DNA from: Bacillota bacterium
GTDB taxonomy: Bacteria > Bacillota > Sulfobacillia > JAJZYS01 > JAJZLH01
DNA: 64,000 bases
NCBI GenBank assembly: GCA_021803575.1
Contig: JAJZLH010000010.1
Coordinates: 11,055 to 75,054 of the forward strand
Direction of reading: 5' to 3'
Below the pieces are notes generated by a model that saw only the letters and a list, made by a program, of their open reading frames with translations, made no database searches and was not told the origin of the DNA. This document shows positions 4,810-30,063 of the stretch, piece by piece; position 1 is the first letter of the stretch; each line of letters opens with the position of its first letter. Both the position numbers and the translations under genes were made by a program.

Positions 4810-5101
4810 GAGAGCACCCCCGTGGCGGCTAGGAGACGTGGCGCCTGGTTCATTCCGCGTTTGCCCACAGAACCCTGGCGCCTTGCCAGTCATCCCGGGT
4901 GGCCGATCACCGGGAAGGGAGGCGATGGGGCCCTGGCAGCCGGGGTGACCGGCCGCCCCAGGGCATCTCCAGGACATGAGACAGGCGTCGGCGAACGGTC
5001 GGCGAAGCCACCCAGCGGATGGCAGGGCCTCGGGCGGGTCATGGTGGGCGGCCGGACGGGGCAGTGGCAGGATCCGCCCGGCAGGTGAGGGGAGGGAGCC
5101 C

Positions 5102-5338
5102 ATGCTGACTCTCTATGGCGCACTCGCCGTGTGCTTGATGATGGTCTTCTACGCCCTCGAGCCGCGTGGGAGGCGCTTCACGCTCCTCTTCGCCGTGGCC
5201 TGTGCCCTGTCGTCGCTCTACGGCTGGCTGGCTGGAACATGGCCGTTCGGCGTGGTTGAGGCGGTCTGGGCACTTCTGGCCGTGCGGAAATGGTGGCGGC
5301 TCGACCCGCACCTGCCGCAGACGGGCGGGCCCGACTGA
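5102..5338 (+). CDS. small hypothetical membrane protein (78 aa, 2 predicted TM)
   Basis: ATG at 5102 (M43 of ORF 4976-5338) preceded by GGGGAGGGAG. Hydrophobic segments 'LTLYGALAVCLMMVFYAL' and 'LLFAVACALSSLYGWLAG'. Confidence 0.35.
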   Translation: MLTLYGALAVCLMMVFYALEPRGRRFTLLFAVACALSSLYGWLAGTWPFGVVEAVWALLAVRKWWRLDPHLPQTGGPD

Positions 5339-5441
5339 GCGGCGGATCGAGCGGAGGGTGTATCGTGCGGGGAGGATGGCTGAGGCGGTGGGCGTGAAGC
5401 CAGGGAGTGATCCGGGCCAGAGGCTGAAGGAGGAGAGCCAA

Positions 5442-6641
5442 GTGCGCTACGACTTCGATCGCCCGGTGGACCGGCAAGGGACAGCGTCAATCAAGTGGGA
5501 CGGCCGCACCGACCGCTTCGGGAGAGCAGACGTCCTTCCCATGTGGGTGGCCGACATGGACTTCCCGTCTCCGCAGCCGGTGATCGAGGCACTGGCCGGC
5601 CGCGTCGGACACGGTATCTTCGGTTACACCAGGGCCGACGAGGACTACCGGCAGGCCGTGATCGGCTGGCAGGAGAGACACCACCACTTCACGCCCCGCC
5701 CGGAGTGGCTGTGCCACAGCCCAGGCGTGGTGGCTGGTCTGGCCCTGATGGTCAGTGCATACAGCGCAGCCGGTGACGGCGTGATCATCCAGCCGCCCGT
5801 CTACCACCAGTTCAAGGCCGTCCTCGACGCGCTTGGCCGCCGGACCGTGCTCAACCCTCTGCGCTATGATGGCGAGCGCTACACGATCGATTTTGCCGAT
5901 CTGGAGGCCAAGGCGGCCAGCGCCAAGATGCTGATCCTGTGCAGCCCGCACAACCCGGTCGGCCGGGTCTGGCTTAGAGACGAACTGGTTCGGCTGGGAG
6001 AGGTGTGCCTCCGCCACGGTGTGCTGGTGATCTCTGACGAGGTGCACGCCGACCTGGTGCTGGGAGATGTGCCGCACACGCCGTTTGCCAGCATCTCAGA
6101 GGAGTTCGCCCATCACTCTGCCACCTGTGTGTCGCCGAGCAAGACCTTCAATCTGGCTGGCATGCAGACGGCGGTGGCCATCATCGCCGACCCTGAGCTG
6201 CGGCGGGCGTACGACCGCTGGCTGCACGACTACCACCTGTGGGGGTTGAATCCGCTTGCCCTCACGGCACTGGTGGCAGCCTACACCCACGGCGACGAGT
6301 GGCTGGAGCAGCTATTGGCTTATCTGCGCGCCAACGCCGCCCTGGTCGTGAGTTTCGTCCGCGATCGGATGCCCGAGCTTCGGGTGCAGCCGCCAGAAGC
6401 GACCTACCTGATGTGGCTGGACTGCCGGGCGCTCGGCATGACAGGCTCGGCACTGGAGCGCTTCTTCGTGGAGGAGGCGGGTCTTGGTCTGGACGGGGGA
6501 CACCAGTTTGGGGTGGGCGGCGACGGCTTTCTGCGCCTGAACATCGCCACAGCGCGCTCCCGGCTGGTTCAGGCCCTCGAGCGCATGGAGAACGCGCTGT
6601 CGGGTCGGCCCCGGGAGCGGGCCGCAGCCACCGAGGGCTAG
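5442..6641 (+). CDS. patB: PLP-dependent C-S lyase (PatB/MalY-type cystathionine beta-lyase, aminotransferase class I/II fold)
   Basis: GTG at 5442 (V93 of ORF) preceded by GAAGGAGGAG. N-terminus 'RYDFDRPVDRQGTASIKWD...LPMWVADMDF' matches the PatB/MalY signature; PLP-lysine region 'SPSKTFNLAG'. Confidence 0.75.
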   Translation: MRYDFDRPVDRQGTASIKWDGRTDRFGRADVLPMWVADMDFPSPQPVIEALAGRVGHGIFGYTRADEDYRQAVIGWQERHHHFTPRPEWLCHSPGVVAGLALMVSAYSAAGDGVIIQPPVYHQFKAVLDALGRRTVLNPLRYDGERYTIDFADLEAKAASAKMLILCSPHNPVGRVWLRDELVRLGEVCLRHGVLVISDEVHADLVLGDVPHTPFASISEEFAHHSATCVSPSKTFNLAGMQTAVAIIADPELRRAYDRWLHDYHLWGLNPLALTALVAAYTHGDEWLEQLLAYLRANAALVVSFVRDRMPELRVQPPEATYLMWLDCRALGMTGSALERFFVEEAGLGLDGGHQFGVGGDGFLRLNIATARSRLVQALERMENALSGRPRERAAATEG

Positions 6642-6894
6642 GTAGCCCTCGATCCTGGCAGGACGTCAGTCGTTGGCGAGAGAGCAACGGGGCAGTCTTC
6701 CCTGCTGTCCGTCGCCAGCGAGGCGGGGCGCAGGTGAACCCGTGACACTCCGCTCGGCCGGTTGCAGCGTGTGCACCACAAGCCATGGGCCACTTTTCAC
6801 TAGGCAGGCGCGGGGATACCATAGCGATGAGGGGGGAGTGAAGGACCTGTCCTGACAGAGCCGACTCGCCAGTTGCTCGCAGGAGAGCGATGTC

Positions 6895-9339
6895 ATGGTT
6901 TACGCCGAGGAACATCGCCGCACACGTTTTCTTCCTCTTTCATCCTATTGGTTCGCTGTGAATATGCAGTCAGCAGCACTGCTCGCCATCGCGGTGCCGG
7001 AGAGCCTGCTCCGCTTCGCCGGAGCTGGTCACACCACAGCGCTGGCGCGGGTTGCCGCCATGGGCGCCATCGTCTCCATGGTCGTGCCGCCAGCGATGGG
7101 GTGGGTCTCGGATCGCTGGAAGCAGCGCGGCATTCAGCGGCGGACCATTGTCGTGGCCGGCGCCGTCGCCAACGTGGCCGGCCTTCTGGCCATGGCCCAG
7201 GCCACCAGTCTGACTACCCTCACCCTTGCCTTCATGCTCACCATGCTCGGTCAGAATGCGGCGCTGGCCGCCTTCGAGGCGCTCTTGCCAGATGTTGTGC
7301 CGGAGAATGCCTGGGGACGGGCCTCAGGCGCCATGGGTGTAGCCACGCTCACCGGCAGCATCTTCGGCCTGATCTCGGCCGGGCTGCTAGGCGCCGCCTG
7401 GGCTTACGAGATCATGGCCGTGACCACCGTTTCGGCTCTCGTCCTCACCTACTGGGTGCATGAGACACCAAAGGCAGAGCAGGCGGCTGAACCAGCGAGC
7501 GAGGTCCCGAAGAGCAGACATGACTTCGGCGTGACGTTTGTGGCCCGCTTTCTGATCATGCTGGGCCTCACCTTCCTGCTCACCTTTGTCCTCTACTTCT
7601 TTCAGGATGTGCTGCACGTGCAGAATCCCGGCGAGGGCACGGCAACGGTGGCTGGCGTCGCCCTGATCGGAGCCGTGATCTCAACCTGGGCGATCGGGCA
7701 CATCGCCGATCGGGTGAAGAAGTCCTACGTGGTGGCCGCCTCCGGCGTGCCGATGGCGCTGGCGGTCTTCGGCTTTGCCCTCTTCCCGGAGGAGCGTGTC
7801 ATCTTCGCCCTTGGCATCCTCTACGGCCTCGGCTACGGGGCGTTCCTCTCATCGGACTGGGCGCTCGCCCTGGCCACGCTGCCAGATCGCCACCATCGGG
7901 CCCGCGACCTCGGCATCTGGGGCATCGCCTCCAGCTTGCCAAATGTGGTGGCACCGGCCATCGGCGGCGTCATCATCACCGCCTACGCCCTGCCCGCGGT
8001 CGGTTACCGCGTGCTCTTCGCCGTGTCGGGTGCGTGCCTACTGCTGGGCTCGGCAGTCGTTCTGGGCGTAGGCCGGCCGGAGAACCGCACCTCGCTGCTG
8101 CACATGGCCTTCATGGCCTTCATCGCCGGCATTCTCACCGCCTATGTCAAAATTGCCTACCGCTCGCGCATCATTGGCCGTCTTCCCTTCCGTCGCGGCG
8201 CCACGCTGGTGGTTGCCAACCACAACCAGGACCTGGAGGGCATGGTGCTGCCGGCCGCCCTCTTCCTGGGCGGTCCGTGGACCCGGCCGGTGTACTCAGC
8301 CGGCTCGCGCCGCCTGTTCGAGCCCTACTTCCTATGGGATAGGGCGCCGAAGTGGCTCCGCCCGCTGGTGGCGTGGCTGCCGCTGATGCACATCATGAAC
8401 GCCCTCGGGGTCCTCCCCATCGAGAACCAGCCGCGCCGCCGGCCGCTCTCCAGCCTGCTCTATGACATCCGCCTTAGGGAAGGTGATCTTCCGCTCGCCT
8501 CCGTCATGACAGCCGAGGGCCTGGCAGAGCTGTCCCAGGCGGCAGGTGTTGATCTCAGCGCCGCCCGCCTCTCCGACGTGTGGCGCCGGGCGCGCCTGCG
8601 CGACGCCGGCCGGCGAGAGGCCTCCTACCGCCTCTTGCAGCCCGCTTACCGCGAGCAGATGAAAGTCCGCACCCGGGAGATGGTGAGAGAGCAGTTCGCC
8701 AGGCTCAAGGCTGTGCTTGTGTCAGGCGGCACCCTCTATCTCACCCCGGAGGGCATGATGTCCCCGGATGGCCGGCTGCACCGCTTCAAGGAGATCCTCC
8801 GGGTGCTCCAGCCACTGGCCGATCAGGTGTTCATCGCCACCCCGTCGTGTGATCCCTTCGCCTCTGGCCGCCTCGCCATGACCCTGCGCATCGTGCGGGC
8901 CAGCAGCCCGGACCTGAGAGGAGAGATCCTGCGGGCCCGCCCGATCACCGTGAGCCAGGTGCTGGCCGAAGCCCTGATCATGCTCAAGGGGCCGGCCTAT
9001 CCCGAGGAAATCGCGGAGGCTGCCCTCGGCGGCCTCGACACCCTGCCTGCCGAGGCCTGCCTGGTTCCTGCCGCCAAGTCCGATTGGGCGCGGCGGATCC
9101 GGGGCGAGATCGCGACCCTCCGTGCCCGCCGCATCCTGATCGACGCAGGAGACGGCCGCCTCGTCCTCTCGCCCAATCGCCACGATCGGCGCTTTTCCCA
9201 TATCCCCGACATCGTGGTGGCGTGCGCCAACATGCTGGCCGACGCCAGGGCCGCCTTCGCGACGGCGCAAGCCGCCCCCGAGCCGGCAACCAGCCGGACG
9301 GAGGCGCTTGGCGGCGGAGCACAGCGGTATGGCAGTTGA
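6895..9339 (+). CDS. fusion protein: N-terminal MFS transporter (~12 TM, LplT-like) + C-terminal lysophospholipid acyltransferase (LPLAT/PlsC-like) domain
   Basis: Single 814-aa ORF. Residues 1-~400 form a hydrophobic MFS-like 12-TM region with an MFS loop 'GWVSDRWKQRGIQRR'. The C-terminal half carries LPLAT motif I as a variant 'ANHNQDLEG' (H-x4-E instead of H-x4-D) and a clear motif III 'LYLTPEGMMS' (compare FPEGTR). Resembles an E. coli LplT/Aas-type lysophospholipid re-acylation system fused into one polypeptide. Confidence 0.65.
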   Translation: MVYAEEHRRTRFLPLSSYWFAVNMQSAALLAIAVPESLLRFAGAGHTTALARVAAMGAIVSMVVPPAMGWVSDRWKQRGIQRRTIVVAGAVANVAGLLAMAQATSLTTLTLAFMLTMLGQNAALAAFEALLPDVVPENAWGRASGAMGVATLTGSIFGLISAGLLGAAWAYEIMAVTTVSALVLTYWVHETPKAEQAAEPASEVPKSRHDFGVTFVARFLIMLGLTFLLTFVLYFFQDVLHVQNPGEGTATVAGVALIGAVISTWAIGHIADRVKKSYVVAASGVPMALAVFGFALFPEERVIFALGILYGLGYGAFLSSDWALALATLPDRHHRARDLGIWGIASSLPNVVAPAIGGVIITAYALPAVGYRVLFAVSGACLLLGSAVVLGVGRPENRTSLLHMAFMAFIAGILTAYVKIAYRSRIIGRLPFRRGATLVVANHNQDLEGMVLPAALFLGGPWTRPVYSAGSRRLFEPYFLWDRAPKWLRPLVAWLPLMHIMNALGVLPIENQPRRRPLSSLLYDIRLREGDLPLASVMTAEGLAELSQAAGVDLSAARLSDVWRRARLRDAGRREASYRLLQPAYREQMKVRTREMVREQFARLKAVLVSGGTLYLTPEGMMSPDGRLHRFKEILRVLQPLADQVFIATPSCDPFASGRLAMTLRIVRASSPDLRGEILRARPITVSQVLAEALIMLKGPAYPEEIAEAALGGLDTLPAEACLVPAAKSDWARRIRGEIATLRARRILIDAGDGRLVLSPNRHDRRFSHIPDIVVACANMLADARAAFATAQAAPEPATSRTEALGGGAQRYGS

Positions 9340-18856: not shown

Positions 18857-19551
18857 GAGGGCGCCCGCTGCTGTGGGCGGTGCTGGCGCTGGCGGTTGTG
18901 CTGGGCTTGGCCTGGCTGGTCGGCGCCTCGCCCTGGCTCTCCCTCAGGCGCGTCGCGGTCAGGGGCGGCCCTCCCCAGCTCTTTCAGGACACCGGCCTGG
19001 CCCTCGGCCAGCCGCTCTACCTGGCACCGTTGGCCCAGGCCAGACTCACCCTGCTGGCCAGGGCTCCGTGGCTGGCCAACGCCGTGCTCAGCCGGGTGTT
19101 CCCGGACGAACTGGTGATCGCGGTCACGCCGCGCCAGCCGGTGGCGCTGGCCTTCGTCGGCGCCGGCACCCTGGTCGGCCTCGACCCAAGCGGCGTCACC
19201 TTGCCGGTGAGGCGGAGCGCCGAGGCTGCCTATCCGTATCTGACCGGGGTGGCGGTGCCGGCCAGCCCGTATCAGAAGATCACGTCCTCGGCCGGTCTGG
19301 CCGCCCTGGGCTTCCTGACCGATCTACCGGCCGCGCTGCGCACCAAGGTCTCCGAACTGATCGTGTCCAAGGGCCAGATCACCGTCTTCCTCCTGGCCGG
19401 CACCGAGATTGCGCTGGGTGAGCCGACGGCCATCGCCACCAAGGCCAGGCTTCTGGTGCAGATTCTGGGCGAGGCCCAGGCCAAGGGCCTGACCGTGACC
19501 CGTGTCGACCTGACCCATCCGGCCCAGCCGCTGGTGACGGCCACGCCCTGA
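18838..19551 (+). CDS. ftsQ: cell division protein FtsQ/DivIB (POTRA domain)
   Basis: Basic N-terminus, one TM 'LLWAVLALAVVLGLAWLV', and a POTRA-like 'LRRVAVRG'; sits immediately upstream of ftsZ. Confidence 0.7.
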   Translation: MARRRLRGRPLLWAVLALAVVLGLAWLVGASPWLSLRRVAVRGGPPQLFQDTGLALGQPLYLAPLAQARLTLLARAPWLANAVLSRVFPDELVIAVTPRQPVALAFVGAGTLVGLDPSGVTLPVRRSAEAAYPYLTGVAVPASPYQKITSSAGLAALGFLTDLPAALRTKVSELIVSKGQITVFLLAGTEIALGEPTAIATKARLLVQILGEAQAKGLTVTRVDLTHPAQPLVTATP

Positions 19552-19627
19552 GAGAAGGGAAACGGAGGGGTGAAGAGAAGTGCGTAGCCCTGAGCAGTCT
19601 CGTCATCCGTCCCCCGAGGAGGACGCT

Positions 19628-20716
19628 ATGTTTGAGTTTGAGTCGGCTCCATCTCATGCCGACCGCTCGGCCATCATCAAGGTGGTGGGAGTGGGGGGCG
19701 GCGGCAGCAACGCCGTGAACCGGATGATCGCCGTCGGCATCCAGGGCGTCGAGTTTATTTGCATCAACACCGACCTGCAGGCACTGCGCATGTCCCAGGC
19801 GCCGGTGCAGCTTCAGATCGGCGACAAGCTGACCAAGGGTCTGGGCGCCGGCGCCAACCCGGAAGTGGGGAAAAAGGCGGCCGAGGAGTCCCGGGAGCGG
19901 ATCTCCGAGCACGTGCAGGGCGCCGACATGGTGTTCGTGACGGCGGGACTGGGCGGCGGCACCGGCACCGGTGCGGCGCCGGTGGTGGCTGAGATCGCCC
20001 GTGAGACGGGTGCGCTGGTCGTCGGCGTGGTGACCAAGCCTTTCAGCTTCGAGGGCAAGCGGCGCAGCGCCTACGCCGAGATGGGCGTGGCCAGCCTCAA
20101 GGAGAAGGTCGACACGTTGATCGTGATCCCGAACGATCGCCTCCTGGAGGTGGTGGACCGCAAAACCACCATGCTGGACGCCTTCCAGCGCGTCGACGAC
20201 GTCCTGCGCCAGGGCGTGCAGGGCATCTCCGACCTGATCACGGTCCCCGGCATCATCAATGTCGACTTTGCCGATGTGCGCACCATCATGCGTGAGGCCG
20301 GCTCCGCCCTGATGGGGATGGGCGTGGCCCGCGGTGAAAACAGAGCGCTGGAGGCGGCCAAGTCGGCGGTGGAAAGCCCATTGCTCGAAACGTCGATCCA
20401 CGGTGCCAAGGGGGTGCTTCTCAACATCACCGGCAGCGCTGACCTGGCCATGTCCGAAATCCATGAGGCGGCCATGCTGATTCGCCAGGAGGCGGACGAG
20501 GACGCCAACATCATCTTCGGCGCCGTGATCGACGACCGGATGGGAGACGAGATCCGCCTGACCCTGATCGCCACCGGCTTCGGCGGCGGTGAGCGGCGGA
20601 GTCTGGAACCGATCAGCCGCCGCTTTGACACCGCCACCTTCGCCCCGGCCCCGACTGAAGAGCAGCCCGCCAAGGACGAACTGGACATCCCGTCTTTCCT
20701 GCGCCGGAAGGAGTGA
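19628..20716 (+). CDS. ftsZ: cell division GTPase FtsZ
   Basis: ATG at 19628 (M17 of ORF) preceded by GAGGAGG at 7 nt. '[13 protein letters not shown]' tubulin signature and 'NTDLQAL'; C-terminal 'DIPSFLRR' conserved peptide. Confidence 0.95.
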
Positions 20717-20763
20717 GCCAAGGCCCGCCGAGGCGCTGCGCCCGGACCCGGGGCCGGCCGGGC

Positions 20764-21477
20764 TCAGGCTGGGAACGACTCGGCCGCGATCTCCTGGACG
20801 CGGCGCGCACACATGTCGAGCAGTGCCTCGCCCTTCTCCGGCGTGGCGTGGCGCGGCTGGCCATTCACGGCACCCGGGAAGCGGCTCTCACGCCCCGCTA
20901 GCTCCTTGTAGGTCAGCCTGGCGAGGCGCGGCGGCGTCTGGTCTGGCGTGTCCTCCAGGTGAACCCAGTTCGGATCGATCGCCATCACCGCTGCCGTTTC
21001 GTCGGCGCCGGCGTGGCCAGCCCCCTCGATGATGGCGTCGATCTCCCGGCGAAAGTCCATCCACCAGTGCACGATCACCACGGCGGCGCCGACCTCCGCC
21101 GCCTCCTCGGCGGCCAGGGTCAGGGCGCCGTTGTTGCCGCCGTGGCCGTTCAGCCAGATCTGGCGGGGCAGGCCAGCGCGGACCAGGGCCACTGCCACGG
21201 CGGAGACGTAGCGCAGGAAGGGCCGGGCGGGGATGTCCACGGTTCCGGCGAAGGGCGCCAGATCCCAGGAGTGACCGTAGGGGATTTCGGGCAGGAGGAG
21301 AAATCTCTTGGGGTCAGCCCGCTCCACTCGCCGGCCGATCTCCACCGGAATTACAATGTCAGTGCCGAGCGGCGCATGCATGCCATGGGCCTCGACCGTT
21401 CCGATCGGCAAGAGCGCTACAGGCGACGCTTCCCTCAGAGACGAAAATGCCCGGGAGGTCAACTCACTGATGCGCAT
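20764..21477 (-). CDS. creatininase-family amidohydrolase (creatinine amidohydrolase/ArfB-like)
   Basis: Start at M44 of ORF ('MRISELTS'). 'LLPIGTVEAHG', 'IPYGHS', 'NGHGGN' family motifs. Antisense to flanking ftsZ and pgeF. Confidence 0.7.
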   Translation of the reverse strand: MRISELTSRAFSSLREASPVALLPIGTVEAHGMHAPLGTDIVIPVEIGRRVERADPKRFLLLPEIPYGHSWDLAPFAGTVDIPARPFLRYVSAVAVALVRAGLPRQIWLNGHGGNNGALTLAAEEAAEVGAAVVIVHWWMDFRREIDAIIEGAGHAGADETAAVMAIDPNWVHLEDTPDQTPPRLARLTYKELAGRESRFPGAVNGQPRHATPEKGEALLDMCARRVQEIAAESFPA

Positions 21478-21513
21478 GGCTTCCCCCTTGATCCGTCCTT
21501 GCACCGTCTGTTC

Positions 21514-22344
21514 GTGAGCGGGCCAGGCATTCACCTGCCGGCCGCCGAGGCCTTCGAGCTGACCTGGCGGGGCGAGGTGGCGCTCCTCCAGCCGCCCGGC
21601 TGGCAAGCCTCCGGTGTCGTGGCTGCCGTCTCCACCCGCATCGGCGGCGTGTCAGAAGGGGCCTATCGGGCGATGAATCCATCGCTGTCCAGCGGCGACG
21701 ACCCGGCGCGGGTGGAGGAGAACCGGCGGCGGCTGGTCCTGGCCATCGGCGCCTCCGGCTGGCCGGTCGCCACCGCCCACCAGGTGCACGGCAAGGCGGT
21801 GCACGTCGTGGCCACCCCGCCCGAGCTGGCCTGGGGCCAGGGGATATCGCCGCGAGCCGATGCTCTGGTCACGGCCCTGCCCGGCGTATTGCTGGCGCTG
21901 GTGGTGGCTGACTGCGTGCCCATCCTGCTCCGTGCCCCTGCCGGCCGGGGGGTGGCGGTGGTGCATGCCGGCTGGCGCGGCAGTGCCGCCGGCGTCACCG
22001 AGGCGGCGGTCAGAGAATTATGTCGTCTCACCGGCGCAGCCGCCGATGACCTGGAGGCCGCGATCGGCCCGGCGATCGGCCCGGGATGCTATCCGGTCGG
22101 GCCAGAAGTGAGGCAGGAAATTCTGCTTAATCACCCGTGGGCGCTTGCGGAAACGGCTGACGGCCGCCTCGATCTGCCCACCCTGCAGCGTAAGATCCTG
22201 GAGCGGGAGGGCCTGAAACCAAAGTCCGTATTGACTTCCGGGCTTTGCACCAGGTGCTGGCCGGACCTCCTGTTCTCCTATCGGCGAGACGGTCGGGCAA
22301 GCGGCCGGATGGCGGCCATAATTGGGCTGGAAAAGCAGGAATGA
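21514..22344 (+). CDS. pgeF: peptidoglycan editing factor PgeF (YfiH / laccase-domain, DUF152)
   Basis: GTG at V186 of ORF 20959-22344. 'VVADCVPILL', 'HAGWRG', 'CTRCWPDLLFSYRRDG' are conserved YfiH motifs (His/Cys ligands). Confidence 0.8.
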   Translation: MSGPGIHLPAAEAFELTWRGEVALLQPPGWQASGVVAAVSTRIGGVSEGAYRAMNPSLSSGDDPARVEENRRRLVLAIGASGWPVATAHQVHGKAVHVVATPPELAWGQGISPRADALVTALPGVLLALVVADCVPILLRAPAGRGVAVVHAGWRGSAAGVTEAAVRELCRLTGAAADDLEAAIGPAIGPGCYPVGPEVRQEILLNHPWALAETADGRLDLPTLQRKILEREGLKPKSVLTSGLCTRCWPDLLFSYRRDGRASGRMAAIIGLEKQE

Positions 22345-23051
22345 AGGGGATTTTGACGAATTCAGACAGCGGTGACGGGTTGACAGAACTTCTGGACCGT
22401 TTTCGCGAACTGCGGCAGGTGGTGGCCGAAAGGGCACTCGCAGCAGGGCGTGAGCCGGAGGAAGTGCGGATTGTCGCCGTTACCAAAGGGGTTGCCTTGC
22501 ATGTGGTGCAGGCCGCTCACCGGCTTGGTGTGTCGGACTTCGGGGAGAACCGGGTCCAGGAGGCCAGGCTGAAGGTGCCCCAGGTGGCGGCGGCCACCTG
22601 GCACGGCATCGGGCGGCTCCAAACCAACAAGGCAAGCTGGGCGGTGCGCCTGTTCTCCTGGATTCACAGCGTGGACCGGGAGGAGCTAGTGGGGCCGCTG
22701 GCACGAGCGGCCGCCGAGTACGGATGTCGGCCCAGGGTGTTGGTCGAGGTCTTGACGGCGGCGGACGGACACAAGGGAGGGGTGGTGCCGCAGCGGTTGC
22801 CCTGGCTCCTGGAGGCGGTTGGGAAGAGCGGGCCGCTTGAGCTCGCCGGGCTGATGACCGTCGCATCCCGGGCCGATCCCGAGGCCTGTTTCGCCCGCCT
22901 GAAGGAGCTGCAGCAGACGTGGGTCGCGGAGTATCCGGGTCTCAGGGAACTGTCGATGGGCATGAGCGATGACTTCGGGTCGGCCATCCGGCAGGGAGCC
23001 ACCATGATCCGGATCGGGCGGGCGCTGTTCGGCCCGAGGGACGCCAACTAA
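22341..23051 (+). CDS. yggS: PLP homeostasis protein YggS (alanine-racemase N-domain fold)
   Basis: ATG at M33 of ORF overlapping the pgeF stop (ATGA). 'VAVTKGV', 'FGENRVQE', 'HGIGRLQTNKA'. Confidence 0.85.
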   Translation: MKGILTNSDSGDGLTELLDRFRELRQVVAERALAAGREPEEVRIVAVTKGVALHVVQAAHRLGVSDFGENRVQEARLKVPQVAAATWHGIGRLQTNKASWAVRLFSWIHSVDREELVGPLARAAAEYGCRPRVLVEVLTAADGHKGGVVPQRLPWLLEAVGKSGPLELAGLMTVASRADPEACFARLKELQQTWVAEYPGLRELSMGMSDDFGSAIRQGATMIRIGRALFGPRDAN

Positions 23052-23060
23052 GGAGGATCG

Positions 23061-23504
23061 ATGATGAAGGTGATGGACAAGTTCCTGAACATGATCGGCT
23101 TCGAAGAGGAAGAGGGCGCAGATGAGCAGCCGGTGGGCGAGGAGCGGAAGGAAATGAAGGACAAGGTGCGGCGGGTGCCGCTGGTCAGCCTGCCGGGCAG
23201 CAACGCCCAAAAGGGCGGACTGCATGTGGTGGTCGCATACCCGACCGACGGCAAGGACGTACAGGAGATCGCGGACCAGCTGAAGGGCCGCCGGCCGGTG
23301 ATTGTCAACCTGGAAGGCATCTCCAAGAGCGAGGCGCAGCCGATCCTGGACTTTCTGGCCGGCGCTGTCTACGCCTTGGACGGCCGCCTGGAGCGCGTGG
23401 GGACCGGCATCTTCCTGGTCACGCCGGCCAACGTCGAGGTGCAGATGGATGAAGCCCCGGCCGAGGAAGTGTCAAAGCGCGAGGCGAACTACTTCGGCGC
23501 CTGA
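23061..23504 (+). CDS. sepF: cell division protein SepF
   Basis: Acidic N-terminus 'FLNMIGFEEEEGADE' and C-terminal SepF core 'VIVNLEGISKSEAQPILDFLAGAVYALDG'. Confidence 0.85.
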   Translation: MMKVMDKFLNMIGFEEEEGADEQPVGEERKEMKDKVRRVPLVSLPGSNAQKGGLHVVVAYPTDGKDVQEIADQLKGRRPVIVNLEGISKSEAQPILDFLAGAVYALDGRLERVGTGIFLVTPANVEVQMDEAPAEEVSKREANYFGA

Positions 23505-23544
23505 TGCCTGAGTCTGGCCGAGGGGGAGTGCCGGTCTGCTGCTT

Positions 23545-23799
23545 GTGATCTTCTTGGTCGAGCTCATCGGCAAGCTGCTGATTCTCGCCATCCTGGTCCG
23601 AGCGCTGATGACGTGGTTCTCGCCACCGCGGCCGGGCGGCGGTTTCTGGATGGTGGCGCATGCCCTGGACCGGGTGACTGAGCCGGTGGTCTCGCCCATC
23701 CGGCGGCGCCTGCCCACCTGGGGCGGTTTCGATCTGGCACCGCTAGTGGCGATTGTGGTCGTCTATCTGGTGATGAGTGTGGTGGTCTGGGTCCTGTAG
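23545..23799 (+). CDS. yggT: YggT-family membrane protein (Ycf19/YlmG)
   Basis: 84 aa, two TM helices; conserved position between sepF and divIVA. Confidence 0.7.
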   Translation: MIFLVELIGKLLILAILVRALMTWFSPPRPGGGFWMVAHALDRVTEPVVSPIRRRLPTWGGFDLAPLVAIVVVYLVMSVVVWVL

Positions 23800-23818
23800 T
23801 GACAAAGGAGGCGTCGCG

Positions 23819-24268
23819 TTGCTGACCCCGCTCGACATTCAGAACAAGGAGTTCAAGAAGGGCTTTCGCGGCTACGACGAACAGGAGGTGGACGCCTACC
23901 TGGACGAGGTGGTGCGCGACTTCGAACTGGCCCTCAAGGAGCGGGACGATCTGAAGGCGCAGGTGGCGGAGGCCCAGCGCCAGGTGCAGCAGTATCGGAC
24001 GCTGGAGGAGCAGCTGCAGAAGGCCCTCTTGGTGGCGCAGCAGACAGCGCAGGAAGTGGTGGAGGCGGCGCACAAGGAGGCGCAGCTGATCACCGAGCGC
24101 GCTGATCTGGAAGGGAAGCGGATGGCCGAGGAGGCCAGGGCGTCGGTGCGGGCGGTGGAGGAGGAGGCGGCCAGGCTGCGCAGCGAGTTGGAGGTGTTCC
24201 GGGCCAAGACCCGCTCGCTGCTCGAATCTCAGCTCAGGCTGTTGGAGGGTACGCCTGGCACCGACTAG
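23819..24268 (+). CDS. divIVA: cell division protein DivIVA
   Basis: TTG start at L15 of ORF 23777-24268, preceded by AAAGGAGG at 7 nt. Product '(M)LTPLDIQNKEFKKGFRGYDEQEVDAYLDEV' is the canonical DivIVA N-terminal lipid-binding domain followed by a coiled coil. Confidence 0.85.
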   Translation: MLTPLDIQNKEFKKGFRGYDEQEVDAYLDEVVRDFELALKERDDLKAQVAEAQRQVQQYRTLEEQLQKALLVAQQTAQEVVEAAHKEAQLITERADLEGKRMAEEARASVRAVEEEAARLRSELEVFRAKTRSLLESQLRLLEGTPGTD

Positions 24269-24269
24269 C

Positions 24270-25202
24270 ATGGATTGGATCGGACCGGGCATCTGGCAGG
24301 GGGACGCCTTAGAGGCGGCCTCCTTGTTGCCCTTGGACTCGATCGACCTGGCCTATCTGGACCCGCCCTTTGGCACCGGACGCACCCGCAGCGGCCCCCT
24401 CGGCCGCTATCCGGACGGCTGGCAGGGCGCCATGGCACACGCCAGCTGGCTGGTGCGATGCTGCGTCGGACTCTGGCCGGCGCTCCGAGAGGGGGGAACG
24501 CTCTGGCTGCACCTCGACGCCCGCACGGTGCACCACGCCCGCGTGCTCCTGGACGATCAGCTGGCTGGCGGCACCTGCCGCAACGAGGTGGTCTGGTGCT
24601 ACAACGGCGGCGGGCTGCCCAAGCGCGACTTCCCGCGCAAGCACGACGTGTTGCTCCGCTACGTGAAAGGCAAGGACTGGACCTTTCACCCGGCACGCCA
24701 GCCCTATAAAGCGAACACGCAGGCGGTCGGGCGCCACTCCAGCCGGGCCCGCCGGGTGGCCATTGATCTGGGCAGGGGCACCCCCCACACCGACTGGTGG
24801 ACAGATATCCCCACCGTCACCGGCTGGGCACCGGAGCGGCTTGGCTACCCCACCCAGAAGCCACTGCAGCTTCTGGAGCGCCTGATTGCGGCCACGTCTA
24901 ACCCGGGCGACCGGGTGGTCGATCTGTTCATGGGCAGCGGCACCACCCTGGAAGCGGCAGCCCGCCTCGGCCGTTGCTACCTGGGGGTCGACGCCTCGGC
25001 CGCCGCCTGCGACCTGGCCGCCAGGCGGCTCCGACCGTGGCAGGCGGCGGCCTGGCCGGTTGCGCTGGAGGGGGTGGGGACGGGACAAGCGGGCGGGACG
25101 GCGGAGGTTGGCGCTCAGGTCACCAGCCGCAGGAGGAGCGGGGTCACGAAGCTTTCAACCAAGGCGGCCACCAGCAAGAGGCCGATCGGCAAGAGCGTGT
25201 AG
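24270..25202 (+). CDS. beta-class DNA amino-methyltransferase (N6-adenine or N4-cytosine), no cognate REase recognised
   Basis: Motif IV 'IDLAYLDPPFGTG' is N-terminal and motif I 'VVDLFMGSGTTLEAA' is C-terminal (order IV...I = beta class, like CcrM/M.RsrI/M.PvuII). The ATG sits 1 nt after the divIVA stop. The C-terminal ~55 aa is low-complexity, and the last 88 nt overlap the convergent gene 25115-25717. Confidence 0.75.
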   Translation: MDWIGPGIWQGDALEAASLLPLDSIDLAYLDPPFGTGRTRSGPLGRYPDGWQGAMAHASWLVRCCVGLWPALREGGTLWLHLDARTVHHARVLLDDQLAGGTCRNEVVWCYNGGGLPKRDFPRKHDVLLRYVKGKDWTFHPARQPYKANTQAVGRHSSRARRVAIDLGRGTPHTDWWTDIPTVTGWAPERLGYPTQKPLQLLERLIAATSNPGDRVVDLFMGSGTTLEAAARLGRCYLGVDASAAACDLAARRLRPWQAAAWPVALEGVGTGQAGGTAEVGAQVTSRRRSGVTKLSTKAATSKRPIGKSV

Positions 25203-25717
25203 TAGAGCGGGCGCTGGCGCACGCCGGCCGGGCGGGAGGCGGCGACGGCCAGGCCGATGCCGAAGGCGTAGGCGCCGATTTCAAACACACCGTGCGGTAA
25301 GATGCCGGCCAGCATGACCAGCGGCCAGGCGGCGTGATGGGCGCGGGCGATGGCGGTGACGACCAGGCCGCCGATGATGGCGTTGACAAAGAGCAAGAGC
25401 ACGAACAGGGCCAGGGCGCCGTAGCCCAGCACAAGCCGGCCAAGGCGGCTCTTCAGGCGCAGCAGGAGGGCGGCCAGCAGGACGAGGGCCAGCACCTTGA
25501 GGTTGTTCAGAAAGATACCGAGCGCCCGGGCCAGCGGGGACGGTGAGAACAGCAAGGAGGAGAACATGCTGTGCTCGAAGCCGTGGCTGACCATGGTGGA
25601 GAGGTGGCCGAGGCTGCTGGGACTGAAGCTCTGAGCGAGGGCGCTGAACAGGAGCATCACCGCGAAGAAGAGGAGGAAGACGAACAGGGAAAACCGCCGG
25701 ATCTGGCGCCCTGTCAC
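25115..25717 (-). CDS. polytopic membrane protein, SpoIIM/DUF95-like
   Basis: 200 aa with ~6 TM helices. 'ILPHGVFEIGAYAFGIGLA' resembles the SpoIIM-family 'PHG.FE' motif. Last gene of a three-gene minus-strand operon (4-nt overlap with the upstream gene). Confidence 0.45.
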   Translation of the reverse strand: MTGRQIRRFSLFVFLLFFAVMLLFSALAQSFSPSSLGHLSTMVSHGFEHSMFSSLLFSPSPLARALGIFLNNLKVLALVLLAALLLRLKSRLGRLVLGYGALALFVLLLFVNAIIGGLVVTAIARAHHAAWPLVMLAGILPHGVFEIGAYAFGIGLAVAASRPAGVRQRPLYYTLLPIGLLLVAALVESFVTPLLLRLVT

Positions 25718-26139
25718 CGCCGCACTCCGTCGTCCGGTTGGCCGAGCGCCCGCCAGAGCTGCTCCCAGATGGAGTGGCGCATCATCAGGCAGATATCTCC
25801 GGCCCGGCAGCGGTCGGCTGCCTTGAAGGCATCGCCCAGCAGGTACTGGAGGCGGAGGCGATCGGCGGCACCGAGTTCGACCTCAGACGTGAACAGCGTG
25901 TCCCAGAAGTGGCAGGCGGCGCGCTCCCAGCGGTTTACCGGCACAGCTGGGTCGTAGCTGGGCGGGGTCAGGACCTGAGAGTCCTGCCAGGTGAACTCGC
26001 CGATCCGGCGCAAGAGCGCCTCGTCCAGCACGCAGGCCACCACGTTGGCCAGAAGGGCGGTGGCCGCCTGGCGCTCTGGGCGGTCTGGCCGGGGCAGACT
26101 CAGGCGCACCGTCTCAGCTGACGGCGACGGCTCACTCAC
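25714..26139 (-). CDS. hypothetical protein (141 aa)
   Basis: No recognised motifs. Translationally coupled to both neighbours (overlaps of 4 and 8 nt). Confidence 0.4.
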   Translation of the reverse strand: MSEPSPSAETVRLSLPRPDRPERQAATALLANVVACVLDEALLRRIGEFTWQDSQVLTPPSYDPAVPVNRWERAACHFWDTLFTSEVELGAADRLRLQYLLGDAFKAADRCRAGDICLMMRHSIWEQLWRALGQPDDGVRR

Positions 26140-26908
26140 GCGGCGGATCCCCCTTCAAGGTCAGCGGAAAGACGGTGGGCCGAAGGTCGGAGCGCACTGG
26201 CGCCGGGCTGGGCGCTGGGGTGAAGGTGATCACGGCATAGCCGCCGTCCTGATCACGCTCTTCGGCCAGGTAGGTGGCGGTGTGGCCCGGCGCCGCGCCC
26301 AGGAGCACGAAGAGGTGGGCGAGCTCGGCGTCGGGGTGGCCGTCGATCCAGTGCTGGGCGCCCACGTTTAGGATCTCCGCCCCCTCGCCTTGCTCCAGCA
26401 GGTGACGGAGGGTGCGCTCAAAAGCCTCGGGGCCCTCGCTGTTGCCTCCTGTGCTGCGCGTGGTGGCACCCACCACCACCAGTGCCACCGGGACAGAGGC
26501 CTGGGTGCATGCCGTCTGGATGGCCTCGCCGACCGCCATCGACCGCTCCGGGGCGTGGGGCGGCACGCTCACCGCCAACAGCCCATCTCGCAACTCAGGC
26601 AACCAACGGCCGAGATAGGCCTGGCCCTCCGCTTGCCACTGGCTGTCAGCCGCGTCCGGCCAGAAGTCGCGCTCGGCCAACTGGTGGCAGATCTCGTGGC
26701 GCAGGGCCTGGGCGGTCGGCCCGGACGGCTCTGAGACGGAAAGCCGAGGACTCCGCCACCGGGAGTCGATCATCACGACCTGTCCGACCCCGGCCTGGGT
26801 GAGGGTGGCCAGGGCACGGCCACAAGCCTCGGCGAGTGCGCCGGAGGCACCCGGCATGGCAGCGGCCGGAGGCAGGAAGAGGGGGAGCAGTGCGGGAGTG
26901 GTGGTCAC
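26132..26908 (-). CDS. class-III extradiol dioxygenase (LigB/DODA/YgiD)-like protein with substituted N-terminal metal ligands
   Basis: 258 aa (DODA is ~262 aa). Co-linear, weak similarity to E. coli YgiD recalled from memory: 'PALLPLFLP' vs 'MPALFLGHGSP' (His lost); 'VVMIDSRW' vs 'VVVSAHW' (His to Arg); 'GAQHWIDGHPD' vs 'GNVVHNL...WHGD'; 'HLFVLLGAAPG' vs 'PLLYVLGAWDG'. GTG start. Confidence 0.4.
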   Translation of the reverse strand: MTTTPALLPLFLPPAAAMPGASGALAEACGRALATLTQAGVGQVVMIDSRWRSPRLSVSEPSGPTAQALRHEICHQLAERDFWPDAADSQWQAEGQAYLGRWLPELRDGLLAVSVPPHAPERSMAVGEAIQTACTQASVPVALVVVGATTRSTGGNSEGPEAFERTLRHLLEQGEGAEILNVGAQHWIDGHPDAELAHLFVLLGAAPGHTATYLAEERDQDGGYAVITFTPAPSPAPVRSDLRPTVFPLTLKGDPPRE

Positions 26909-27056
26909 AGGCCCATCCTACCCGAGGCAAAGGCGGCCGACAACTCGGCAGGCGGCTCCCTCGGCAGGCCAGGCCATGGGTGCCGTGACGGCCGCCCCGG
27001 CCGGAGGGCACCGCTTCTGCCTGCCGGGTCTCGGCATGGCGGACGGAGCGGGCGCT

Positions 27057-27085
27057 TTGACCGGCGTCCTAAGCCGTGATACGCT
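27057..27085 (+). promoter_or_regulatory. putative sigmaA-type promoter for the ileS leader (TTGACC-17-TACGCT with TGn)
   Basis: TTGACC at 27057-27062; TGATACGCT at 27077-27085. Weak -10; a guess only. Confidence 0.25.
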
Positions 27086-27089
27086 CTCG

Positions 27090-27306
27090 GCAACCGATGA
27101 CCGAGACAGGCCACCCAGGCGACGCCATCACAGCGACCCGCAGCTGGTGCAAGGCGGGACGGCGACTGAGGCGGCATCCCTCGGGAGGGCCCAGGCGAAG
27201 CCAGTAGCCGGGCCGGATCCCCCCGTTAGCGGGTTCGAGTGGGGGCAACCCCAACGAAGGTGGTACCGCGGTCCGTCCGCCCTTTGGCGCACGGGCCTTT
27301 TTGTTT
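27090..27306 (+). promoter_or_regulatory. T-box riboswitch leader (presumed Ile-responsive) controlling ileS, ending in an intrinsic terminator
   Basis: F-box CCGTTA at 27223-27228. T-box consensus AAGGTGGTACCGCGG at 27257-27271 (compare AGGGUGGNACCGCG). Its 3' end overlaps the 5' strand of the terminator GGTCCGTCCGCC-CTTT-GGCGCACGGGCC + TTTTTGTTT (27270-27306). An AGTA box lies at 27203-27206; candidate Ile specifier AUC-A at 27127-27130. Sits 22 nt upstream of the ileS ATG in a 420-nt intergenic region. Confidence 0.65.
27270..27306 (+). terminator. intrinsic terminator of the ileS T-box leader (12-bp stem, 1 mismatch, 4-nt loop, U-tract)
   Basis: GGTCCGTCCGCC / CTTT / GGCGCACGGGCC followed by TTTTTGTTT. 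Confidence 0.6.
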
Positions 27307-27327
27307 GGCAAGGGGAGGGGATATCGC

Positions 27328-30063
27328 ATGGCCGAGGCGTTGAAGACGACCTTGAACCTTCCCCGCACCGAGTTCCCGATGCGGGCGGACCTGGCGCGGT
27401 CCGAACCGGAGCAGGTGGCACGCTGGCGGGCCATGGACCTGGCGGCGCTGGTGCACCAGGCCAGAGCCGGCCGCCCGGCGTTTGTCCTGCACGATGGCCC
27501 GCCCTATGCCAACGGGCACATCCATCTTGGCACGCTGCTCAACAAGACGCTGAAGGACATGATCAATAAGTACTGGACCATGCAGGGCAAGGACGCCCGC
27601 TACGTGCCGGGATGGGACACGCACGGCCTGCCCATCGAGCGGGCGGTGCAGCTGCGCGACGGGAACCAGATCCGGCTTGACCCGCTGAGGCTGCGCCAGG
27701 CCTGCCGTGCCTATGCCGAGGACTACATCGCCATCATGAGCGAGGAGTTCGAGCGGCTGGGGGTGAGGGCCGACTGGGCGCATCCCTACGTCACTCTGGC
27801 GCCGGCCTTCGAGGCGGCCGAGGTGCGGGTCTTCGCCCGCATGTACGAACTGGGCCTGATCAATAAGGATTTCAAGTCCGTGAACTGGTGCCCGGAGTGC
27901 GAGACTGCCCTGGCTGAGGCCGAGATCGAGTACGCGGAGATCACGTCGCCGTCCCTCTACGTGGCCTTTCCGGTCAGGGCGGCGGTGGGCCCCCTCCAGC
28001 CGGGCGACCGTCTCCTGGCCTGGACCACCACCGCCTGGACCTTGCCGGCCAACCGCGCGCTGGCCGTCCACCCCGAGATCCGCTACGTGCGGGCGAGCGG
28101 GCCCGAGGGCGCTCTGGTGCTGGGCAAAAGCGCCTACCAGCGCCTGGCCGCCGCCCTGGCTCTGCCGCCGGTGGTCGAAGAGTTTTCTGGCCAGGCGATG
28201 GTCGGCGCCTCGGTCGAGCACCCGCTGGAGGAACGCCTGGTGCCGGTGCTGGCCGGCGGCCACGTCACCGACTCAGAGGGCACCGGGATCGTCCACACCG
28301 CGCCTGGACACGGCGAGGAGGACTTTGAACTGGGCCGCAGCGCCGGTCTGGAGGTGGCCGTGCCGATCGACGCCAAGGGCATCTTCACCGCCGAGGCTGG
28401 TGCGCTGGCCGGGCTGGGCTACAAGGCTGCCTATGAGCCGATCGTGGCCGCCCTGAAGGGGCGGGGACGGCTGGTCGGCGAGCATCCCTACCGGCACAGC
28501 TACCCGCACTGCTGGCGCTGCCATGGCCCGATCCTGTTCCGGGCCACCGAGCAGTGGTTCTGCTCGATCTCCAAGATCCGCCCCCAGCTGCTTGAGGCGA
28601 TCGCCGAGGTGGCCTGGAGTCCGGCCTGGGGAGAGGAGCGCATGCGCCAGATGACCGCCGAGCGGGGCGAGTGGTGCATCTCGCGCCAGCGGGCCTGGGG
28701 CCTGCCCATCCCGGCGCTGTACTGCCAGGGCTGCGGTCGGATCGTGGTCAGCGAGGCGGCTGAGACGGTGGCCCGGGTGTTCTCCCAGGAGGGGTCCGAC
28801 GCCTGGCTGGTGAGGCCGGCCGAGGACTTCCTGCCCCAGGGCTTCACCTGCCCGGACTGTGGCGGCAGGGCCTTTCGCAAGGAGACCGACATCCTGGATG
28901 TCTGGTTCGACTCCGGGTCCTCCCACGTCTCGGTCCTGGCCGGAGAAGGTGGGCTGGGCTGGCCGGCCGACCTCTACCTGGAAGGCACCGACCAGTTCCG
29001 GGGCTGGTTCAACTCCTCCCTGACCACTGCCGTGGCCATCCGCGGCCGGGCCCCCTACCGCCAGGTCCTGTCCCATGGCTTCATCACCGACCAGCTCGGT
29101 GACAAGATGTCGAAGAGCCGCGGCAACGTCGTCACCCCAGCCGACCTGATCGGCACGTACGGTGCCGACATCCTGCGCCTGTGGGTCGCCTCCAGCGACT
29201 TTCGGGCCGACATCTCGGTTTCAGATACCATCCTGGCCCAGACGGCTGAGGCGTACCGGAAGCTGCGCAACACCCTGCGCTTCCTGCTCGGCAACCTGGG
29301 CCGCGCCTCGACGCCGCTGCCCGAGCCCGCCGCCCTGCCTGAGCTGGAGCGGCTGATCCTGTCCCGCCTGGACGCCCTGATCGGGCGCGTCGACCAGGCC
29401 TACCGGCGCTTTGACTTCCACGTGGTCAGCCAGCAGCTCAGCCGCTTCGTCTCGGTCGATCTGTCCAGCTTCTACCTGGACGCCAGAAAGGATCTGCTCT
29501 ACACCGCCCTGCCGGAGGACCCTGAGCGCCAGGCGGCGGTGTCGGTCCTGGAGCAGCTGGCCCGCACCCTCACCCTCCTGGTGGCGCCGATCCTCACCTT
29601 CACCAGCGAGGAGGTCTGGCGGTACCTGCCGCACCGGGCGGGTGATGCCGAGACCGTGCAGCTGGCCGACTTTCCGAAGGCCGGGCGCTTCCGGGACGAG
29701 GCCCTGGAGCGCCACTACCAGGAGCTGGAGCGGGTGCGCCAGGAGGTGCTCCGCGAGCTGGAGATGGCACGGGTGGCCGGTCGCATCCACGGCTCTTTGG
29801 ACGCCAGGGTGCGGCTCAGAGCCAGCGGCCCAGACCTGACGCGGCTCACCCGCTCGGAGGCACTCCTGCCCACACTCTTCGTCGTGTCTCAGGTCGAACT
29901 GGTGTCGGGTGCTGATGAGCTCAAGGTCGAGGTGGAGGCGGCTCCAGGTGAGCGGTGCGAGCGCTGCTGGCGGGTGCTGCCCGAGGTGCGGCCCCATGCC
30001 CTGGGCCTTATCTGCGAGCGTTGCGCGGGGGTTTTGGCCCGTCTGGCCGAGCGAGCAGAATGA
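27328..30063 (+). CDS. ileS: isoleucyl-tRNA synthetase (type 1, C-terminal zinc finger)
   Basis: ATG at M10 of ORF preceded by GGGGAGGGG. HIGH-type 'PYANGHIHLGT', 'KMSKSRGN', C-terminal 'CERCWRV...CERCAGVL'. Confidence 0.95.
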   Translation: MAEALKTTLNLPRTEFPMRADLARSEPEQVARWRAMDLAALVHQARAGRPAFVLHDGPPYANGHIHLGTLLNKTLKDMINKYWTMQGKDARYVPGWDTHGLPIERAVQLRDGNQIRLDPLRLRQACRAYAEDYIAIMSEEFERLGVRADWAHPYVTLAPAFEAAEVRVFARMYELGLINKDFKSVNWCPECETALAEAEIEYAEITSPSLYVAFPVRAAVGPLQPGDRLLAWTTTAWTLPANRALAVHPEIRYVRASGPEGALVLGKSAYQRLAAALALPPVVEEFSGQAMVGASVEHPLEERLVPVLAGGHVTDSEGTGIVHTAPGHGEEDFELGRSAGLEVAVPIDAKGIFTAEAGALAGLGYKAAYEPIVAALKGRGRLVGEHPYRHSYPHCWRCHGPILFRATEQWFCSISKIRPQLLEAIAEVAWSPAWGEERMRQMTAERGEWCISRQRAWGLPIPALYCQGCGRIVVSEAAETVARVFSQEGSDAWLVRPAEDFLPQGFTCPDCGGRAFRKETDILDVWFDSGSSHVSVLAGEGGLGWPADLYLEGTDQFRGWFNSSLTTAVAIRGRAPYRQVLSHGFITDQLGDKMSKSRGNVVTPADLIGTYGADILRLWVASSDFRADISVSDTILAQTAEAYRKLRNTLRFLLGNLGRASTPLPEPAALPELERLILSRLDALIGRVDQAYRRFDFHVVSQQLSRFVSVDLSSFYLDARKDLLYTALPEDPERQAAVSVLEQLARTLTLLVAPILTFTSEEVWRYLPHRAGDAETVQLADFPKAGRFRDEALERHYQELERVRQEVLRELEMARVAGRIHGSLDARVRLRASGPDLTRLTRSEALLPTLFVVSQVELVSGADELKVEVEAAPGERCERCWRVLPEVRPHALGLICERCAGVLARLAERAE

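Follow-up and report, generated by a model that had tools for sequence, protein, structure and literature searches.

A putative orphan DNA methyltransferase of the beta class is joined to divIVA in the division cluster of uncultured Bacillota

The window analysed here is a stretch of 64,000 nucleotides (nt) of contig JAJZLH010000010.1 from a Bacillota bacterium (assembly GCA_021803575.1), and the gene under study is a predicted beta-class DNA amino-methyltransferase that directly follows divIVA. The open reading frame (ORF) listing of the window gives this gene as intact and 310 amino acids (aa) long, on the forward strand at 24270-25202, exactly where the original prediction had placed it. 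It stands at the end of a tight, co-directional array, pgeF-yggS-sepF-yggT-divIVA-methyltransferase, in which the gaps do not exceed 40 nt (Table 1). Further upstream the window carries an ftsQ-like gene and ftsZ, followed by a creatininase-family gene on the opposite strand, so that the array lies in a core chromosomal region.

We compared the ORF with Pfam, where it matched PF01555 (N6_N4_Mtase) with an E-value of 1.4e-35 and 123.7 bits (cut-off 26.7), residues 25-251 aligning to profile positions 1-220 of 221. The catalytic motif IV stands ahead of motif I, which binds S-adenosylmethionine (AdoMet); this order is the beta-class permutation, and both motifs align to their counterparts in M.BceJIV and M.RsrI, as does TQKP to the HPTQKP of the same two enzymes. 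Among 19 clade members, D31, P32 and P33 of motif IV are invariant (position 34 is F or Y), and so are T195, Q196, K197 and P198, and G222, S223, G224, T225 and T226 of motif I; besides DPP[FY], TQKP and GSGTT, about 80 further positions do not vary. By sequence, the best relatives of solved structure were M.BceJIV (8URK; E 7e-24), M.RsrI (1e-20) and CcrM (1e-15). The AlphaFold model, for which 19 family members were used, had predicted local distance difference test (pLDDT) scores above 90 in the catalytic core and a whole-model mean of 69.6, and Foldseek matched it with probability 1.00 and E-values of 1e-14 to 1e-9 to CcrM, M.BceJIV, M.MboIIA, M.RsrI and M.PvuII, the first three on top at about 1e-14. 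The proposed beta-class order, DPPF (IV) before FMGSGTT (I), is therefore upheld by sequence, alignments and fold alike. The in-frame G+C content at third codon positions is 0.87, like the 0.86-0.89 of the neighbouring genes, and this value, the purifying selection described below and the 690 homologues indicate that the ORF is really coding.

The central segment (residues 140-187) is strongly conserved, most of it belonging to the invariant positions (R143, P145, K147, N149, T150, G154-S157, I165-L167, G170-P172, D175-W177 and D179-W186), and has a pLDDT below 50 in the predicted structure. By analogy with beta-class complexes, this segment is probably the DNA-contacting target-recognition loop, for which it is our candidate, and the enzyme probably acts as a dimer, like other members of its class (PMC11380664). 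Its activity is most likely that of a DNA N6-adenine methyltransferase, adenine being favoured because motif IV has D and not S and because N6-adenine enzymes gave stronger matches than N4-cytosine enzymes. By the motif rule, D at this position in motif IV is a pointer to N6-methyladenine. A ribosomal or other RNA as substrate would have a precedent in RsmH/MraW, an rRNA N4-cytosine methyltransferase encoded in the division cluster, and would suit the housekeeping-like conservation of the gene, its position in a division cluster and a central recognition segment that resembles that of no characterised enzyme and is modelled with low confidence. We consider such a substrate very unlikely: every significant match by sequence and fold is to a DNA methyltransferase, RNA methyltransferases appear in Foldseek only at E about 5e-4 and with template modelling (TM) scores below 0.3, the sister clades are fused to DNA nucleases, and RsmH belongs to a different family.

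At the junction, which reads ...gacTAGcATGgat..., the TAG of divIVA occupies 24266-24268, a single c follows at 24269 and the methyltransferase ATG begins at 24270; the claim that this ATG lies one base past the divIVA stop was thus correct. No Shine-Dalgarno sequence was found at normal spacing before the ATG, a GGAGGG sitting 19 nt upstream. In contrast to the methyltransferase start, the TTG of divIVA has an AAGGAGG 8 nt ahead of it; orthologous DivIVA proteins have 148-159 aa, and the divIVA start is most likely this TTG at 23819, not 23777. A scan of 19000-27400, made with a weak consensus tool and with the sigma-70 consensus only, detected no terminator-like or sigma-70-like site near the junction. 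Membership of the methyltransferase in the operon is well supported, and the spacing, together with the lack of consensus terminators and promoters, indicates that it is probably co-transcribed; one mRNA with yggS-sepF-yggT-divIVA would carry it. Termination-reinitiation at the divIVA stop would translate it, and we regard this as the likeliest route because a properly spaced Shine-Dalgarno sequence is missing and the start lies 1 nt past the stop. Reinitiation would hold the methyltransferase at a low level, as a small fixed fraction tied to DivIVA synthesis.

The inferred ancestral cluster of Firmicutes is ylmE-sepF-ylmG-ylmH-divIVA-ileS, in a survey that makes no mention of a methyltransferase (PMC8136486). 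As this cluster runs from divIVA to ileS without a methyltransferase, the gene appears to be an insertion between the two. The window also departs from the ancestral cluster in having no ylmH between yggT and divIVA (23545-24268); ylmH is likewise absent in all methyltransferase-bearing relatives and is present in the more distant L174 (3197-3985).

A search of 5.8 billion proteins returned 690 homologues at E <= 1e-5. The closest of them, at 52-99% identity, are without exception short, stand-alone proteins (264-310 aa) and form one clade in a neighbour-joining tree; the more distant ones, in sister clades, are for the most part longer proteins with a fused Mrr_cat or HNH nuclease domain. In every clade member with readable upstream sequence, every major branch being sampled, the methyltransferase lies directly 3' of divIVA. 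These loci are L001-L004 (metagenome-assembled genomes, MAGs, of Sulfobacillus sp.), L005, L006 (a Thermaerobacter sp. MAG), L007-L009 (Bacillota MAGs), L087, L088, L089/L090, L091 and L176, so that the position is the same in at least 11 lineages. In six of them the two genes are separated by 1 nt or overlap by 4-17 nt: a 1-nt gap in the window (TAGcATG) and in L002 (TGAcGTG), and overlaps of 4 nt in L006 (ATGA), 8 nt in L091 (GTGcgTGA), 14 nt in L176 and 17 nt in L005. Gaps of 25-59 nt were obtained for L087-L089 from the called starts, which are uncertain because relatives in the same protein clusters have longer N-termini. What follows the methyltransferase varies by lineage, with convergent genes for a SpoIIM-like protein, p141 and p258 in the window clade and a co-directional ccmF-like gene in most others; the stable partner is therefore divIVA, and not p141 or p258. 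The ccmF-like gene (PF01578 and PF16327, about 650-675 aa; L006 8887-10914, L088 6217-8184, L089 6812-8839) overlaps the methyltransferase stop by 11-17 nt in most relatives. There the operon seems to continue into cytochrome-c-assembly-like genes, a module that the window clade does not have here.

We then asked how the methyltransferase has diverged relative to its neighbours. Distances of its core correlated with those of concatenated YggS, SepF, YggT and DivIVA over 11 lineages (Pearson r 0.97, Mantel p about 2e-4), and the two trees agree in their three groups and in the branching within these. The methyltransferase keeps 56-60% identity at the deepest splits, compared with 46-50% for the neighbours. 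The ratio of nonsynonymous to synonymous substitution rates (dN/dS) against the L002 orthologue is 0.185, close to 0.156 for ileS, 0.159 for yggT and 0.167 for spoIIM, values that are approximate because dS of 0.9-1.2 is close to saturation; the gene is under purifying selection. No close relative was found on the listed phages or plasmids, where the best matches were at most 35% identical, and a mobile-element origin was rejected on this ground. Vertical inheritance is well supported by these comparisons, and the pattern fits a functional core gene that has long been resident and has a fixed specificity; a mobile restriction-modification gene would not be expected to show it. The remaining way to discount the gene, as a decaying and functionless remnant of a restriction-modification system or mobile element, could point to the read-through C-terminal tail that overlaps the neighbouring gene. 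It is effectively refuted by the invariant and intact catalytic motifs, by a dN/dS of 0.19 and by the co-phylogeny, the gene having been kept across lineages whose SepF and DivIVA are less than 50% identical.

Conservation of orphan methyltransferases across taxa is well recognised; in the survey of Blow et al. 2016, which does not cover the genera considered here, 57% of them show genus-level conservation, compared with 9% of restriction-associated methyltransferases (PMC4752239). The gene in the window looks like a conserved orphan in the sense of that survey, having no flanking restriction gene, being present across related taxa and showing vertical descent. Searches of the flanking genes with Pfam, NCBIfam and PADLOC gave no nuclease or defence match, and PADLOC had none for the SpoIIM-like protein or p258, in agreement with the earlier statement that no restriction endonuclease is recognisable beside the methyltransferase. 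The SpoIIM-like gene at 25115-25717 (-), directly downstream, had gone unmentioned there. The 141-aa and 258-aa neighbours, p141 and p258, had been singled out for a nuclease-fold check, and neither is a nuclease candidate. The p141 model is a confident bundle made of helices alone, has no PD-(D/E)XK-like sheet and gave no structural match; p258 is LigB-like by Pfam, weakly in the window and with clear PF02900 matches for its orthologues in L005 and L089. Orphan status is well supported for the flanking DNA.

These observations bear on a conventional alternative, that the gene supplies the modification enzyme of a Type II restriction-modification system whose endonuclease is an unrecognised neighbour, such as p141, or lies elsewhere in the genome. 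The best PADLOC matches of the methyltransferase are indeed to Type II methyltransferase models (PDLC03300, E 1.5e-48), sequence is a poor guide to restriction enzymes, and relatives of the enzyme are fused to nucleases. Against this stand the fold of p141, the LigB-like nature of p258 and the placement of their genes, which are read from the other strand, keep company with the SpoIIM-like gene, have four genes between them and the methyltransferase in L005 and are not beside it in the Thermaerobacter-like lineages. The SpoIIM-like gene itself has four genes between it and the methyltransferase in L005 and is not nearby in L006, L087 and L089. Co-divergence with core genes is also atypical for restriction-modification genes (PMC4752239), and we regard this alternative as improbable.

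Table 1. Features of the divIVA-methyltransferase region of the window and of the DNA downstream of it.
Feature	Position	Strand	Remarks
yggS (ylmE), start codon uncertain	22245..23051	+	PF01168, E 2e-15; orthologues 223-236 aa
sepF	23061..23504	+	PF04472, E 4e-27
yggT (ylmG)	23545..23799	+	PF02325, E 4e-18
divIVA, 149 aa	23819..24268	+	PF05103, E 1.5e-39; TTG start behind AAGGAGG at 23804-23810
divIVA stop / methyltransferase start, TAGcATG	24266..24272	+	read from sequence
Beta-class DNA amino-methyltransferase ORF, 310 aa	24270..25202	+	conserved core at residues ~8-262 (24291-25055)
Catalytic motif IV, DPPF, residues 31-34	24360..24371	+	read from sequence
Central segment, residues 140-187	24687..24830	+	strongly conserved, low pLDDT; 19-member alignment and model
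TQKP motif, residues 195-198	24852..24863	+	conserved in the beta class, just before motif I
AdoMet-binding motif I, FMGSGTT, residues 220-226	24927..24947	+	aligns to FMGSGTT of M.BceJIV
Non-conserved tail, residues 263-310, and stop codon	25056..25202	+	overlaps SpoIIM-like gene from 25115
SpoIIM-like membrane protein, convergent	25115..25717	-	PF01944, E 5.6e-14; not part of the methyltransferase unit
p141, 141-aa lineage-restricted helical protein	25714..26139	-	not a nuclease candidate
p258, 258-aa LigB-superfamily-like protein	26132..26908	-	weak PF02900 match, E 0.0034; not a nuclease candidate
T-box leader before ileS	27088..27287	+	RF00230, 51.6 bits, E 1.8e-10, model positions 1-219 of 219

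The reading that we favour, with a probability of about 0.75, is that a solitary beta-class methyltransferase was inserted ancestrally between divIVA and ileS, has been inherited vertically with the division cluster and has a host function rather than a role in restriction. The insertion would date to the common ancestor of the uncultured thermophilic Bacillota labelled Sulfobacillus sp., Thermaerobacter sp. or Bacillota bacterium, after which the gene would have been passed down vertically with the ylmE-sepF-ylmG-ylmH-divIVA-ileS-type cluster. The enzyme would methylate a fixed short motif chromosome-wide, with gene regulation, replication or segregation, and self-marking as candidate roles, and would not be the protective half of a restriction system.

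Several points weigh against this reading or parts of it. Most of the loci were reached by way of the methyltransferase itself, and the sample is biased accordingly; sampling through DivIVA gave two related lineages, L172 and L177, with an unrelated gene in the slot, and the more distant Clostridia-like L173 and L174 also have no methyltransferase at this position. The arrangement is therefore widespread and not universal, and the methyltransferase appears to be dispensable or relocatable in some lineages. All carriers found are metagenome-assembled and uncultured. A promoter may lie inside divIVA, and a restriction enzyme may be unlinked or unrecognisable, the flanking DNA alone having been examined. 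As for the target base, N4-cytosine enzymes were also matched by sequence and fold, if more weakly than N6-adenine enzymes, and DPPF favours adenine specificity without proving it. In L172 the gene after divIVA (4544-5386) is a 280-aa ORF with no Pfam match and no similarity to the methyltransferase, GNAT-like by eye; in L177/L178 a PF02594 protein follows divIVA (L177 1992-2324). The matches listed in genome and metagenome contig collections were mostly distant homologues from many phyla, with at most 45% identity, and the close ones among them were only L007-L009 and the partial loci L011 and L092. None of the clade-member contigs is genome-sized, the longest listed being about 360 kb, and they bear organism names of MAGs only.

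The most serious competitor differs from the favoured explanation only on whether the link to divIVA matters. According to it, the gene is a housekeeping orphan that, for instance, immunises the genome against nuclease-fused relatives that invade it or against restriction enzymes from outside, or sets a general epigenetic mark, and its position is a frozen accident that only supplies a constitutive promoter. The nearest outgroups are Mrr_cat and HNH fusions, and a solitary methyltransferase with their specificity would render elements of this kind harmless; moreover, the slot after divIVA takes unrelated genes in L172, L173 and L177, and the operon runs on into the unrelated ccmF-like gene in most lineages. 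On the other side, the adjacency and the start/stop overlap were kept while the neighbours fell below 50% identity and the downstream genes were reshuffled, a persistence that exceeds the usual lifetime of neutral gene order, though operon inertia could explain it. We hold this account to be a real possibility, at somewhat less than even odds. The original interpretation, of a cell-cycle-coupled epigenetic methyltransferase and not a restriction-modification component, is supported in part. A more specific role, that of a CcrM-like epigenetic regulator of Gram-positives with its synthesis tied to DivIVA translation, is a rather unlikely option. If it were true, remethylation would be coupled to septation or to the asymmetric division of sporulation in a class-level group of thermophilic Bacillota, and genes for division, segregation or sporulation would in turn be subject to feedback from the state of methylation.

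The leading candidates for epigenetic regulators in bacteria are conserved orphan methyltransferases. To our knowledge, very few of them have a known role (Dam, CcrM, CamA and M.BceJIV), and no case of one within a cell-division operon is known. Our literature search found no report linking a DNA methyltransferase with a sepF/divIVA operon. We regard the gene as a new family within a known kind, that of the conserved orphan methyltransferases, set apart by an unusual, evolutionarily stable coupling to divIVA. It offers a concrete candidate for methylation tied to division or sporulation in Gram-positives, and it shows a member of a nuclease-fused, mobile methyltransferase family turned into a stably inherited core gene. 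In practice, its study is limited by the lack of a cultured organism among the carriers found.

CcrM of Caulobacter, which methylates GANTC at N6 of adenine, is the functional model of a cell-cycle-tied methyltransferase. It is not known to be encoded in a division operon, its timing coming from CtrA-dependent transcription and Lon proteolysis. The enzyme in the window shares with it the beta-class fold and motifs (6PBD was the top Foldseek match, E 1.2e-14) and, like CcrM, is an orphan conserved vertically within a large clade; unlike CcrM it has no conserved C-terminal DNA-binding extension, the tail in the window being non-conserved. It was not assigned to the CcrM family (NCBIfam NF050803), for which it scored 60.3 bits against a cut-off of 830 and matched over residues 193-256 only. 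The best NCBIfam model was that of YhdJ (PRK11524; E 1.9e-22, residues 8-257), of which it is not a member either, with 79.7 bits against a cut-off of 292.

The nearest outgroups, the Mrr_cat and HNH fusions, have 35-53% identity to the methyltransferase and share with it [FC]RNE[IV][VI]WC and GTPx[TP]DWWxD; they differ in their C-terminal nuclease domain, in being scattered over many phyla and in lacking the divIVA context. Such single-chain fusions form a large scattered set (for example P0034, P0041 and L021) in which no characterised member was found, and they may be single-polypeptide restriction-modification enzymes. In L021, a Dehalococcoidia MAG, a 453-aa methyltransferase-HNH fusion with 40% identity lies 88 nt after ftsZ (4672-7272), which is probably a coincidence, the adjacency being absent from the other Dehalococcoidia loci retrieved.

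M.BceJIV of Burkholderia cenocepacia (PDB 8URK/9C3S), the best match of solved structure by sequence (over residues 11-259) and among the top folds, is an orphan beta-class N6-adenine methyltransferase that recognises GTWWAC and is conserved across its taxon (PMC11380664). Both enzymes are small and consist of a single domain (about 250-280 residues), with no DNA-binding domain apart from it, and both are taxon-wide orphans (PMC11380664). M.BceJIV differs in coming from another phylum, with about 26% identity, and in having no reported link to a division operon; the targets of the two probably differ too, as the central recognition segment is not confidently alignable. CamA of Clostridioides difficile is an orphan adenine methyltransferase that promotes sporulation in this spore-forming member of the Bacillota (PMC13395437). 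The methyltransferase clade described here likewise belongs to a cluster that ancestrally opened with spoIIGA-sigE-sigG-spoIIR. No close relation to CamA is detectable, since CamA was not among the sequence matches of solved structure, and the two differ in range, CamA being species-specific and the present family spanning deeply diverged lineages.

The C-terminal tail of the methyltransferase is peculiar to the window. A 91%-identical relative ends at residue 276 (276 aa) and lacks it, sister species stop at 266-267, and other clade members terminate 5-15 residues past the catalytic domain. Residues 269-302 have a pLDDT below 50 and are modelled as disordered. From the alignment and the model, the functional methyltransferase would essentially be residues 1-262. 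The last 88 nt of the ORF are overlapped by the 3' end of the convergent SpoIIM-like gene, a convergent overlap (25115-25202) that is due to the species-specific 48-residue read-through tail; sister species have a gap of about 45 nt between the two genes.

Beyond the SpoIIM-like gene, p141 had only seven homologues in 5.8 billion sequences; it always adjoins the SpoIIM-like gene and has about 44 invariant residues, for example in NRWERA and HFWDT. The match at 27088-27287 falls well below the Rfam gathering score of 93, for which reason a default scan misses it, and may be a divergent high-GC T-box; this predicted leader marks the start of the next transcription unit, in which ileS is followed by lspA. 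On the other side of the array, the creatininase-family gene (20764-21606, reverse strand) lies between ftsZ and pgeF, where the window clade does not have the sporulation sigma-factor block; Thermaerobacter-like relatives have spoIIGA-sigE-sigG-spoIIR in place of the creatininase-family gene (L006 2220-5329).

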